Shown here: in pieces, positions 5,404-8,861 of the stretch | Numbering within the stretch: position 1 is the stretch's first letter | How the letters are laid out: each line of letters starts with the position of its first letter | From: Bacillota bacterium | GTDB lineage: Bacteria > Bacillota > Clostridia > Peptostreptococcales > Anaerovoracaceae | Assembly: GCA_025361765.1 (NCBI GenBank) | Contig: JANYJS010000102.1 | Span: 11,166 to 35,165 of the forward strand | Direction of reading: 5' to 3' | Length of the DNA stretch: 24,000 bases | Notes under the pieces: generated by a model | Databases searched by the model: none | What the model was told of the DNA's origin: nothing | Seen by the model: only the letters and a program-made list of their open reading frames with translations | Program-made: the position numbers and the translations under genes

Positions 5404-6651
5404 ATGGGAAAAATAGAGCTACTCGCCCCAGCTGGAGATCTTGAAAAGCTTAAAATAGCCATTGATTATGGCGCGGATGCTGTGTATTTTGGTGGCGAGA
5501 TGTTTGGTCTGCGTTCTGGCGCAAAAAATTTTACAATTGAAGATATTCGCGATGGCGTCGACTATACCCACAAATATGGGCGGAAGATTTATATGGCTAT
5601 CAATATATTTGCCCACAATGAGGATATTCACCTTTTGGAAGATTATCTTTTGAGTCTTAAAGGGATTCCAATAGATGCCTTTATTGTATCAGATCCTGGT
5701 ATTTATTTGTCCATAAAGGCTAAGCTTCCAGAAGCTGAAATTCATTTGAGTACTCAGGCAAACACGACCAATTATAAAGCTGCAGAGTTCTGGCACAGTC
5801 AGGGCATTAAACGCATTGTACTGGCCAGAGAATTATCTCTTGATGAAATCACTGAGCTTCGTGTCAACACATCACCTCAACTTGAAATAGAAGCGTTCGT
5901 TCAGGGTGCCATGTGCATCTCGTATTCAGGCAGATGTCTCATGAGCAATATCATGACAGATCGGGATGCAAACAGGGGAGAATGTTCACACCCATGCCGA
6001 TGGCAGTATCACTTAGTTGAAGAAAAAAGGCCAGGAGAGTATTTCCCTATATTTGAAGATGAACGCGGTAGCTACGTCTTTAATTCAAAAGATCTATGTA
6101 TGCTGGAATTCATACCGGAGCTCATCAATGCTGGGTTGACTTCGGCTAAAATAGAAGGGCGGATGAAAAGTGTTTTCTATGTTGCGACTGTTGTTGGGGC
6201 ATATCGTAAAGCTATAGATAGTTATTACCAAAATCCAGAATCCTATCGATTTGACCAAAATCTCTTGACTGAGCTTAAAAAGGTGAGTCATAGAAATTTC
6301 ACAACTGGATTTTACTTTAATAAACCATCAAATGAAGATCAAAATTATCAAACCAGCAGTTATACGAGAGAATATGATTTTCTTGGCATTGTAAAGTCTT
6401 ATGACGACGAAAATAGGCTTGCCACTATTGAGCAAAGAAATAGAATTTTTGTCGGTGATCAGATTGAAATTATTGGCCCTTATACGGATTATTTCGACCA
6501 GACAGTAGAAATGATGCTTAATCCAGAAGGTGAACATATAGATTCAGCGCCCCATGCTCAGCAAATAATCCAAATAAAAATGAACAAACCCGTAAAGGAA
6601 AATTTCATGTTAAGAAAGCTTCACGTGAAGGAGGTTCACAATGAACAGTAA
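5404..6651 (+). CDS. Peptidase U32 family protein (YrrO/TrhP-like Fe-S protein; candidate O2-independent tRNA hydroxylase)
   Basis: U32 N-terminus MGKIELLAPAGDLEKLKIAIDYGADAVYFGG. A four-Cys motif C171-x6-C178-x15-C194-x3-C198 (nt 5914-5997) matches the Fe-S motif reported for U32 hydroxylases. Confidence 0.85.
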   Translation: MGKIELLAPAGDLEKLKIAIDYGADAVYFGGEMFGLRSGAKNFTIEDIRDGVDYTHKYGRKIYMAINIFAHNEDIHLLEDYLLSLKGIPIDAFIVSDPGIYLSIKAKLPEAEIHLSTQANTTNYKAAEFWHSQGIKRIVLARELSLDEITELRVNTSPQLEIEAFVQGAMCISYSGRCLMSNIMTDRDANRGECSHPCRWQYHLVEEKRPGEYFPIFEDERGSYVFNSKDLCMLEFIPELINAGLTSAKIEGRMKSVFYVATVVGAYRKAIDSYYQNPESYRFDQNLLTELKKVSHRNFTTGFYFNKPSNEDQNYQTSSYTREYDFLGIVKSYDDENRLATIEQRNRIFVGDQIEIIGPYTDYFDQTVEMMLNPEGEHIDSAPHAQQIIQIKMNKPVKENFMLRKLHVKEVHNEQ

Positions 6652-8158
6652 TGATGACATTAAAATCGAAGAAATTATTAATTCCGACAAACTTCAATAT
6701 CATGAAAAAAGAGCCAATCTTGCAAGAGAAGCTGAAAATCTTCTTAGCTATGTTGATGTGAGCGATCAAGTAAAAAGTGCCATGAAGTCCGGCATCCTTC
6801 ACGATATGAATGAGGGGAATAGACCTTATAGGCCAAGATATATTCTTCCTGATTATAAAAAATTTCTCGAGCAAGGCAGCGCTTATCTTAATATTGAACC
6901 ACCAAAGGATTTTTATGAAGCAGTGAATGCACTGTTGATTCTTTACCGTTATGTCCCTTCTATAACGGGTTATCCTGTTTATGTAGGACAGATTGATGAC
7001 TGTCTTGAACCCTTTGCCGATACAGTTACACCAATTGAGCTTGAGAAACTGATGCGCATGCTCTTAATCAATATTGATCGTACTTTACCCAGCGCTTTTG
7101 TGCATATGAATATTGGCCCCAAAGAAACGAGAGTAGGAAGACTCGTTATTCAACTCGAACGCGAGTTGAAAAAGACGATCCCGAACGTATCCTTAAAATA
7201 CGATCCGGATATCACGCCAGATGACTTCGCAAAGTATGCCATAGAATCAGCGCTGGATGTCATTAAGCCTTACTTTGTCAATCATAGACTCATGTCTTCA
7301 CAGCTCGGGGATGACTATGGTGTTGTCAGTTGTTATAACACGCTTAGAATAGGCGGTGGAGCGCATACCCTATGCCGGATAAATTTAAAGGAAATCTCAA
7401 AATCCGCAGAGAACTATAATGATTTCAAAGAAAACAAGTTGAAAGATGCCGTGATTGCATTAGCAGAATTGACAAATGCAAAGACAAAATATCTTGTTGA
7501 AAAATCTCGCTTTTTCGAGTCTAGTTTCCTTGCTAACGAAGGGATTATTGATTTAGAAAAATTTACGACTATGCCAGCAGTCTATGGCTTGTATGAATGC
7601 GTTGAAATTTTATCCGGAGAAAAAATGGGTCATTCCGAGATGGCAAACAGTATGGCAGAAGAAATCGTAAAATTATTCTATGATTACATTAAATCTGAAC
7701 CAGCAGTATATTGCGGCGGTACCGAGGGTAAACATGGCGTGCATGCCCAAAGCAATATAGACACAGATGTTGACGTTACGCCTGGTGTGCGAATTAAGTA
7801 TGGCGAAGAGCCTGGTGTTTTCGACCATATGCTCTTATCCAGCAAACTGCACAAATATTTTGATACAGGCTGTAGTGATATCTATGTTTTTGAAGAGACA
7901 GCTAAGGGCAATATCGATGGCATGCTCGAAATTATCAAAGGTGCTATTAAAAACGGAATCCGAATTTTATCAGTCAACTGTGAAAGTTCGGAATTTATAA
8001 GGATCACCGGATATTTAGTCAAGAAAAAAGATATAGAGCGATATTTTAATGGGGGTTTACTGCGAGAGGACTCTGTTGTATTAGGCGCCGAATCATTGAT
8101 GCCAGGGCATTTATTGGATAGAAAGGTCAAAGGACTTAATGGAAGCGTCAGTAAATAG
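6641..8158 (+). CDS. yjjI: Short glycyl radical enzyme, YjjI family-like (function unknown)
   Basis: 505 aa. A glycyl-radical-like C-terminal motif FIRITGYLV places Gly457 at nt 8009-8011, and a candidate thiyl Cys231 (VVSCYN) lies at 7331-7333. A GRE activase follows immediately with a 20-nt overlap. RBS GAAGGAGG precedes ATG 6641. The family call is from recollection of YjjI and has not been searched. Confidence 0.7.
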   Translation: MNSNDDIKIEEIINSDKLQYHEKRANLAREAENLLSYVDVSDQVKSAMKSGILHDMNEGNRPYRPRYILPDYKKFLEQGSAYLNIEPPKDFYEAVNALLILYRYVPSITGYPVYVGQIDDCLEPFADTVTPIELEKLMRMLLINIDRTLPSAFVHMNIGPKETRVGRLVIQLERELKKTIPNVSLKYDPDITPDDFAKYAIESALDVIKPYFVNHRLMSSQLGDDYGVVSCYNTLRIGGGAHTLCRINLKEISKSAENYNDFKENKLKDAVIALAELTNAKTKYLVEKSRFFESSFLANEGIIDLEKFTTMPAVYGLYECVEILSGEKMGHSEMANSMAEEIVKLFYDYIKSEPAVYCGGTEGKHGVHAQSNIDTDVDVTPGVRIKYGEEPGVFDHMLLSSKLHKYFDTGCSDIYVFEETAKGNIDGMLEIIKGAIKNGIRILSVNCESSEFIRITGYLVKKKDIERYFNGGLLREDSVVLGAESLMPGHLLDRKVKGLNGSVSK

Positions 8159-8861
8159 AATTATCCAATCTTCATTGGTAGATGGTCCTGGTAGCAGAAC
8201 TGTCATATTTATGCAAGGTTGCAACATGTCCTGTCTTTATTGCCATAACCCTGAAACCCAAAATGCAAGCCCAAAAGCAAAGCATTATAGCTTGGAAGAG
8301 CTCTTTGATTTAATCGAAAAACATCAGGATTTCATCGAAGGCGTTACATTTTCAGGCGGCGAATGCACCCTTCAGCATGAGTTTATTATCGCATTCTATA
8401 AACTACTTCATGAGCGCACTAAACTGACTTTGTTCCTTGATACTAATGGCCTAGTATCAAGCGACATAATGATTGATTTAATAAATCATTCTGACGGCCT
8501 TATGATTGATTTAAAGGCTTTTAGCCAAGATTGCCATCGTGCGTTAACCTATACCGACAATAGCGCTGTGAAGGAGAATATTAGGCTAGCCGCACAGAGT
8601 GGAAAATTGCATGAAGTACGTTTAACCCTCGTCGAAGATTTTAATGATGATCCTGATGAACTTAGCGCCTATTTCGATTTTGTCTTAGCTTTGCCGGGAG
8701 ATACAAGACTGAAGATCATTCCATACAGTCCATTCGGTGTCAAGGGCAGTTTCGGCCATAAGAGAGCGTATCCAAAAGAAAAATACGACTTGCTTGTTGC
8801 AATGGGGCAGCGCATATTAAAAGACAGAGTTCTAAAAGTCTGGTATAATTGGAGGAAATAA
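8139..8861 (+). CDS. yjjW: Glycyl radical enzyme activating protein (radical SAM, YjjW/PflA-like)
   Basis: Activase N-terminal signature [27 protein letters not shown], with CX3CX2C at nt 8220-8243. At 240 aa it has no extra ferredoxin insert. Confidence 0.85.
   Translation: [240 protein letters not shown]

Follow-up and report, generated by a model that had tools for sequence, protein, structure and literature searches.

A YjjI-family glycyl radical enzyme with a shortened activase in a Bacillota contig, and a tentative link of its substrate to nucleoside catabolism

Background

To our knowledge, YjjI is the last glycyl radical enzyme (GRE) of Escherichia coli to which no reaction has been assigned. 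It is compact, highly conserved and widespread, and in E. coli its gene is followed by an overlapping gene for the activase YjjW, the pair being described by the models TIGR04040 and TIGR04041 and by PF11230 (formerly DUF3029). The same gene order is present in the DNA analyzed here, a stretch of 24,000 nucleotides from contig JANYJS010000102.1 of a Bacillota bacterium (the window), in which a yjjI-family gene and an activase gene occupy positions 6641-8861 of the forward strand. A preliminary description of the window had taken this pair to be YjjI/YjjW-like and its chemistry to be unassigned, which is still the case, since no function for YjjI was found in the literature searched and a paper of August 2026 continues to treat it as an uncharacterized putative GRE (10.64898/2026.08.13.742689). 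Elsewhere, a yjjI/yjjW transposon insertion was listed in an RNA-folding screen and was not validated there, and yjjI was merely listed as differentially expressed in a study of a LysR-type regulator.

Two further groups of described enzymes were used for comparison. Pyruvate formate-lyase (PFL) and the PFL-like eliminases (PflB, PflD, YbiW, HypD, CutC, glycerol dehydratase) have the same barrel and the same Gly and Cys finger loops as YjjI, which is shorter than the PFL-like enzymes by 250-350 residues. The class III ribonucleotide reductases (RNRs; NrdD) provide the closest solved fold (TM-score relative to the query, TMq, of 0.62-0.74 at 13-16% identity), and some of them carry a glycyl motif, RITGYLV, identical to that of YjjI, together with an equivalent thiyl Cys loop.

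Our reading, to which a probability of roughly 0.85 is given, is that the pair codes for a functional YjjI-family GRE and its dedicated radical S-adenosylmethionine (SAM) activase; the substrate of the GRE is tentatively tied to anaerobic nucleoside catabolism. The pair is a further member of an already known family without an assigned function, and the locus by itself is unsurprising; what is added by the window copy and the 81 loci compared with it is an NrdD-like core that lacks the features of a reductase, a recent loss of the auxiliary-cluster domain of the activase under continued selection, and a nucleoside-catabolism lead for the YjjI family that is directly testable in E. coli.

Gene models and family assignment

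The yjjI-family gene (6641..8158, +) encodes a protein of 505 amino acids (aa), and its open reading frame (ORF) has 20 nt in common with that of the activase (8139..8861, +; 240 aa). The two overlapping genes, their sizes and the places of their motifs, as given in the preliminary description, were all confirmed on the sequence. The start codon of yjjI (ATG at 6641) is preceded by a GGAGG ribosome-binding site (Shine-Dalgarno) at 6630-6634 (+), inside the U32 gene that precedes yjjI, at its 3' end.

Assignment of the 505-aa protein was based on family models, on homology to E. coli YjjI, on a predicted structure and on the ratio of non-synonymous to synonymous substitution rates (dN/dS). The protein matched TIGR04040 ("YjjI family glycine radical enzyme") with 630.8 bits against a cutoff of 498.3 (E=1.4e-189), and the match ran end to end, over profile positions 2-497 of 497; PF11230 was matched with 625.7 bits (E=5e-188). 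The only other Pfam matches were a partial one to PF13597 (NRDD; 38 bits, residues 39-351) and one to the PFL-like family PF02901, which at 22 bits remained below the 24-bit threshold. Identity to YjjI of E. coli K-12 was 36% across 498 residues, that is, over the full length, and the relationship put forward in the preliminary description was in this way borne out.

The 505-aa protein had more than 1,500 relatives among the 5.8 billion proteins searched, and of those with a name the closest belong to Peptostreptococcaceae. Among 1.84 billion representatives clustered at 50% identity, 415 clusters were found at E<=0.001, about 25 of them full length, and from this small number of clusters the YjjI family is concluded to be widespread yet compact and slowly evolving. 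The identical 505-aa protein, accompanied by the same 240-aa activase, recurs in independent samples, on 5 contigs in all, of which one is from an NCBI metagenome-assembled genome (MAG). All 16 residues that are invariant across 32 diverse members, E. coli and an archaeon included, are present in the window protein (E58, R66, Y67, H155, N182, S230, C231, N233, R246, E300, H368, Q370, D376, R384, R454 and G457).

The family ranges over enterobacteria, clostridia, actinobacteria and several further phyla of bacteria, and it extends to at least one archaeon. At the archaeal locus (L094, 8001-10364 of a 172-kb contig), a YjjI homolog of 532 aa and a short-form activase of 247 aa are surrounded by archaeal genes for translation and ribosome biogenesis (eIF-1A, NMD3, RIO1, eIF-2-beta-type), and on account of these neighbors the family is taken to reach Archaea.

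Predicted fold and radical residues

A model of the 505-aa protein was built with AlphaFold2 on a 118-sequence alignment and had a mean predicted local distance difference test score (pLDDT) of 94.8 and a predicted TM-score (pTM) of 0.93. When the model was compared with the Protein Data Bank (PDB) using Foldseek, the best matches were class III RNRs (8p2s_B, E=6.5e-17, TMq 0.74, 13% identity), followed by PflD, hydroxyproline dehydratases (HypD) and PFL. A total of 125 PDB matches were obtained at E<=0.001, and all 50 of the 50 listed were GREs or class III RNRs. The GRE fold anticipated in the preliminary description, a ten-stranded alpha/beta barrel, is therefore supported both by the model and by its structural matches. 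By sequence, no solved YjjI structure was found in the PDB, the best match being a PFL at E=0.006.

The glycyl-type motif FIRITGYLV spans residues 452-460 and places the predicted radical site at Gly457 (codon GGA, 8009-8011, +), while the segment VVSCYN (residues 228-233) contains the predicted thiyl radical site, Cys231 (codon TGT, 7331-7333, +). Both residues, proposed beforehand as candidates, were invariant in 118 close homologs and in 32 very diverse ones, and Cys231 is the sole Cys invariant across the YjjI family, Cys358 not being kept in E. coli, where the R-[IV]-T-G-Y glycyl motif and the S-C-Y-N loop are as in the window. Both could also be aligned with catalytic residues of other GREs. 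In a profile search, "RITGYLV" was identical to the string at the glycyl site of Prevotella copri NrdD, and "YGVASCYN" was aligned to "YAIACCVS" of PFL, so that Cys231 stood opposite PFL C419, with PFL C418 replaced by Ser. Using hhalign against E. coli NrdD and a five-sequence NrdD alignment, Cys231 was placed opposite C384 of E. coli NrdD and C290 in T4 numbering. In the model, Cys231 lies between strands 226-229 and 233-236 and Gly457 between strands 452-455 and 458-461, and this beta-hairpin placement is as expected for GRE finger loops. For Gly465, the residue of E. coli YjjI equivalent to Gly457, in vivo labelling with a radical-trapping probe is reported (10.64898/2026.08.13.742689).

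By homology with these enzymes, C28, C32 and C35 of the activase would bind a [4Fe-4S] cluster at which SAM would be reductively cleaved, and the resulting 5'-deoxyadenosyl radical would take a hydrogen atom from Gly457. The stored glycyl radical would then be handed to Cys231, and the thiyl radical would open turnover by abstracting hydrogen from the substrate, which may be a common polar metabolite, probably phosphorylated or ribose-containing. Known eliminases carry a Glu two residues after the Cys (G-C-x-E); YjjI differs in having Asn at this position.

Relation to class III ribonucleotide reductases

The structural proximity of YjjI to NrdD raises the alternative that the protein is a compact class III RNR, an NrdD/NrdG variant making deoxyribonucleotides. 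Its nearest structural neighbors are NrdDs, the weak PF13597 match points the same way, and the RITGYLV motif and the position of the Cys loop are held in common. The residues that distinguish a reductase are nevertheless missing. With hhalign, the invariant Tyr67 (codon 6839-6841, +, in the conserved R66-Y67) falls opposite the essential second, reducing Cys of NrdD (C79 of the T4-type enzyme, C175 in E. coli), and NrdD N311 faces Gly or Ala. No counterparts to the four Zn-ribbon Cys of NrdD were found in YjjI in the NrdD alignments, the regulatory N-terminus, the ATP cone and the specificity region are absent, and the length of the window protein, 505 aa, falls 100-200 residues short of the 605-712 aa of NrdD. 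None of the NrdD models of NCBIfam matched the 505-aa protein, and E. coli possesses both nrdDG and yjjIW. A compact RNR is consequently regarded as hardly credible.

Because the reducing Cys and the Zn ribbon are lacking and a single Cys is conserved family-wide, reduction through an NrdD-type Cys pair is, as judged from the alignments, ruled out for YjjI. A redox-neutral radical reaction (elimination/dehydration, isomerization or bond cleavage) is more likely. A more specific proposal, speculative and rather unlikely to hold in full, is that YjjI is derived from NrdD, has lost the reductive half of the reaction and carries out a redox-neutral step at a ribose or pentose-phosphate moiety, such as dehydration or cleavage, in anaerobic nucleoside catabolism. 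If true, this would give YjjI a chemistry and would account for the recurrence of its gene beside deoCABD, pdp, psuKG, cdd and genes for BMP-type nucleoside ATP-binding cassette (ABC) transporters.

The activase and loss of its ferredoxin-like insert

The second gene had been called a GRE activase, and this was upheld: radical-SAM and GRE-activase models matched the 240-aa protein at E=1e-70 to 1e-40, and the CX3CX2C motif for the SAM-binding [4Fe-4S] cluster (C28, C32 and C35; 8220-8243, +; matches to PF04055 and PF13353) is intact, the signature reported in the preliminary description beginning at residue 16. Its identification as YjjW held in part. TIGR04041 was the best NCBIfam match, ahead of PflA and other GRE activases, and identity to E. 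coli YjjW was 33% outside a 44-residue gap that follows the radical-SAM motif; the score of 235.6 bits, however, was below the cutoff of 250.2, and the match was split around the missing segment. The cutoff is missed because the activase has lost a ferredoxin-like insert, which in E. coli YjjW comprises 44 residues with two CX2CX2CX3C motifs; the window protein, adjoining yjjI, is thus best described as a YjjW-like short form with the CX3CX2C motif and without the insert of the YjjW architecture.

The distribution of the insert was determined for 74 activases adjoining YjjI genes, of which 50 contained the two CX2CX2CX3C motifs (about 279 aa) and 24 did not. Among the nearest relatives of the window locus it is kept throughout, at YjjI identities of 93% (L087, with an activase of 284 aa), 85% (L088), 81% (L014) and 76% (L002). 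A codon alignment with L087 revealed an exact in-frame deletion of 132 nt (44 codons) between window codons 42 and 43, with its junction at 8264/8265 (+), by which both motifs were removed. The dN/dS values relative to L087 were 0.06 for yjjI (overall range 0.03-0.06), 0.20 for the activase and 0.06-0.10 for neighboring genes. Both genes are under purifying selection, and from the low values it follows that the pair is maintained.

These data bear directly on whether the pair is decaying or non-functional in the window organism. In favor of decay are the 44-codon deletion relative to a locus with a 93%-identical YjjI, the score below the YjjW cutoff and a dN/dS of the activase that exceeds those of its neighbors. 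The deletion is, on the other hand, precisely in frame and neatly takes out the complete insert, both CX3CX2C and GGE are preserved, dN/dS is well under 1, and the allele is found in all 5 samples. Short activases are moreover the norm in Actinobacteria, which account for most of them, and are also encoded in other Firmicutes, in an Oligoflexia MAG and in an archaeon. Decay is accordingly considered highly improbable, and the loss of the insert looks like a recent, tolerated streamlining.

PflA and NrdG likewise have no ferredoxin inserts, and like the window activase NrdG is without auxiliary clusters. The 240-aa protein is predicted to behave still as a GRE activase, and in the window organism it would operate without auxiliary clusters. 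The window lineage and its relatives can be viewed as a natural experiment, the insert being kept beside a 93%-identical YjjI in one and cleanly deleted in the other, and since the lineage deleted cleanly what its relatives keep, the comparison argues that the auxiliary-cluster domain may be dispensable for activation.

Neighboring genes across loci and a possible nucleoside link

Gene neighborhoods were compared across 80 genomic loci with YjjI homologs from many phyla, to which E. coli and several metagenomic contexts were added. Flanking genes (about 236) were called with a codon-position model, clustered, and counted by Pfam family. The activase was the only conserved neighbor of yjjI, being present in 73 of the 81 loci on the same strand and mostly within 20 nt. 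No other conserved partner was found in the Pfam counts, in which the top family reached at most 4 of 117 upstream and at most 2 of 119 downstream genes, and the same counts of the flanks contained no conserved dedicated transporter, pathway enzyme or microcompartment genes. With the activase as its sole conserved neighbor, the yjjI-yjjW cassette is therefore regarded as self-contained. It is in this respect like PFL and NrdD and unlike the CutC-type catabolic GREs, the microcompartment or aldehyde-handling neighbors of the PFL-like eliminases being absent.

One functional theme was nonetheless found to recur. Genes for nucleoside catabolism or uptake (deo, psuKG, cdd, pdp, BMP-type ABC) flank yjjI in 11 of 82 loci and, after dereplication at 70% YjjI identity, in 9 of 37 lineages, representing five phyla. 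In E. coli, deoCABD is divergent from yjjI, and at L010 and L015 a divergent gene for pyrimidine-nucleoside phosphorylase lies about 135 bp from it. The pair psuK-psuG is immediately upstream of yjjI at L019 and 2.5-5 kb away at L033, L050 and L061, cdd is nearby at L023, and a BMP binding protein gene together with cdd is nearby at L072. A further metagenomic lineage has a nucleoside hydrolase gene and matching ABC permease genes 2-3 kb from yjjI. The most extensive arrangements are those of L071 (9224-18965), with crp/fnr-yjjI-yjjW-BMP binding protein-ABC ATPase-two permeases-cdd-pdp on a single strand, and of L021 (3027-16384), with psuK-psuG-crp/fnr-yjjI-yjjW-lacI-type regulator-deoC-deoD-deoB-cdd-BMP-ABC; both are closely spaced, same-strand arrays that look like operons. 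These two loci belong to unrelated Firmicute lineages, and in both of them the gene directly upstream of yjjI encodes a Crp/Fnr-family regulator.

Control gene sets were examined by the same search, and yielded 3 loci for his (hisC only), 3 loci of one genus for gal, and none for trp or nrd; by lineage the controls amounted to 0-2, compared with 9 of 37 for the nucleoside genes. The rbs set was not an independent control, as its rbsK matches were cross-matches to the PfkB kinases of PsuK type. By a rough estimate, 1-2 loci with nucleoside neighbors would be expected by chance. The link between nucleoside genes and yjjI is suggestive and constitutes a testable lead; a nucleoside-linked substrate is proposed because no other functional theme is repeated beside yjjI-yjjW in unrelated lineages, and the theme, taken with an NrdD-like core devoid of the reducing Cys, narrows the search for the substrate to nucleoside- or pentose-derived metabolites.

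Several points weigh against our reading. About three quarters of the lineages, that of the window included, have no nucleoside gene nearby, and the null used for the nucleoside link is crude, the control sets being small and not genome-wide and the theme having come to attention post hoc. Matches to NrdD by hhalign had a low formal probability (6-20%), though they are consistent with the fold search. The raised dN/dS of the activase could reflect a partly relaxed constraint following the deletion. A biclustering study of 2011, moreover, predicted for YjjI a role in nitrate/nitrogen metabolism on the basis of co-expression of yjjI with the nar genes (PMC3228777).

The last of these points, extending to both E. 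coli and Salmonella, belongs to an alternative in which YjjI is a GRE of small molecules that have no relation to nucleosides, with a place, for instance, in nitrogen or fermentative metabolism, and in which its nucleoside neighbors are coincidental. The majority of loci without nucleoside genes would fit this view, as would Crp/Fnr-type regulators that adjoin yjjI in 3 loci and suggest plain anaerobic control. Against coincidence stand the recurrence of nucleoside genes across five phyla, as opposed to 0-2 lineages for the controls, and the operon-like embedding at L071 and L021, which is hard to blame on chance. The chances that a substrate outside nucleoside metabolism will prove correct are put at about even.

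Setting of the pair in the window and the tRNA-modification question

In contrast to the E. coli gene with its divergent deoCABD neighbor, yjjI of the window lies within a housekeeping array, and the cassette would be part of a housekeeping operon behind trmR-trhP. It is preceded by a gene for a Methyltransf_3 O-methyltransferase (4747-5391, +; assigned by Pfam and NCBIfam) and by a gene for a U32 TrhP-like protein (5404-6651, +), the best match of which is the tRNA U34 hydroxylase TrhP, with 397 bits and thus below the cutoff of 534. Located downstream of mltG, these two genes resemble a pair for 5-hydroxyuridine/5-methoxyuridine (ho5U/mo5U) tRNA modification. The U32 ORF overlaps yjjI by 11 nt, a terminator scan gave no terminator-like site between the O-methyltransferase, U32 and yjjI genes, and the two upstream genes are probably co-transcribed with yjjI.

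TrhP/TrmR was considered as a conserved partner of yjjI and was rejected, since among the 81 loci the adjacency is confined to the clade of the window (L002, L014, L087 and L088). In a narrower form, the cassette might cooperate in this clade with the upstream TrmR/TrhP in an oxygen-independent modification of tRNA U34 (ho5U/mo5U) or of another RNA. The overlap of the U32 gene with yjjI and the missing terminator would agree with such cooperation, the arrangement is kept in relatives with YjjI identity down to 76%, and a few other loci have tRNA-related neighbors (Dus, aminoacyl-tRNA synthetase, Pth). The restriction to one clade argues against it, and in a dense housekeeping array adjacency is little informative; the proposal is judged most unlikely. 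We know of no report from the work on E. coli TrhP that ho5U synthesis needs YjjI. At one locus of a distant lineage (L093, 5800-8161), the activase gene comes first and yjjI second, the opposite of the usual order, and the pair is preceded by a tRNA dihydrouridine synthase gene of the Dus family and by a gene for an Asp/Asn-type tRNA synthetase.

The gene order in the window is RNase J, ylbF-like, pepQ, efp, mltG, the O-methyltransferase, the U32 gene, yjjI and the activase, followed by asp23, nusB, a TsaD-like gene, xseA, xseB and ispA, and then by the OLE RNA, dxs, tlyA, an aminotransferase gene, miaB, mutS and mutL. From mltG to ispA every gene is on the forward strand, with tiny gaps or overlaps, and a scan for promoters and terminators within the array returned nothing informative and no convincing terminators.

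An Ornate Large Extremophilic (OLE) RNA, full length and matching RF01071 with 456 bits and E=3.5e-131, was located immediately behind ispA and ahead of dxs at 12964-13551 (+). It is followed by an ORF of 209 aa (13482-14111) that had no NCBIfam match and the listed start of which overlaps the 3' end of the RNA; this is the place that we take to be occupied by the OLE-associated protein OapA in other genomes. The TsaD/Kae1-like protein encoded between nusB and xseA (9581-10615, +) scored 132 bits against a TsaD cutoff of 207.8, and may be a divergent paralog and not the housekeeping TsaD. Its gene was called shorter (323 aa) in the identical contigs, so that translation probably begins near 9644.

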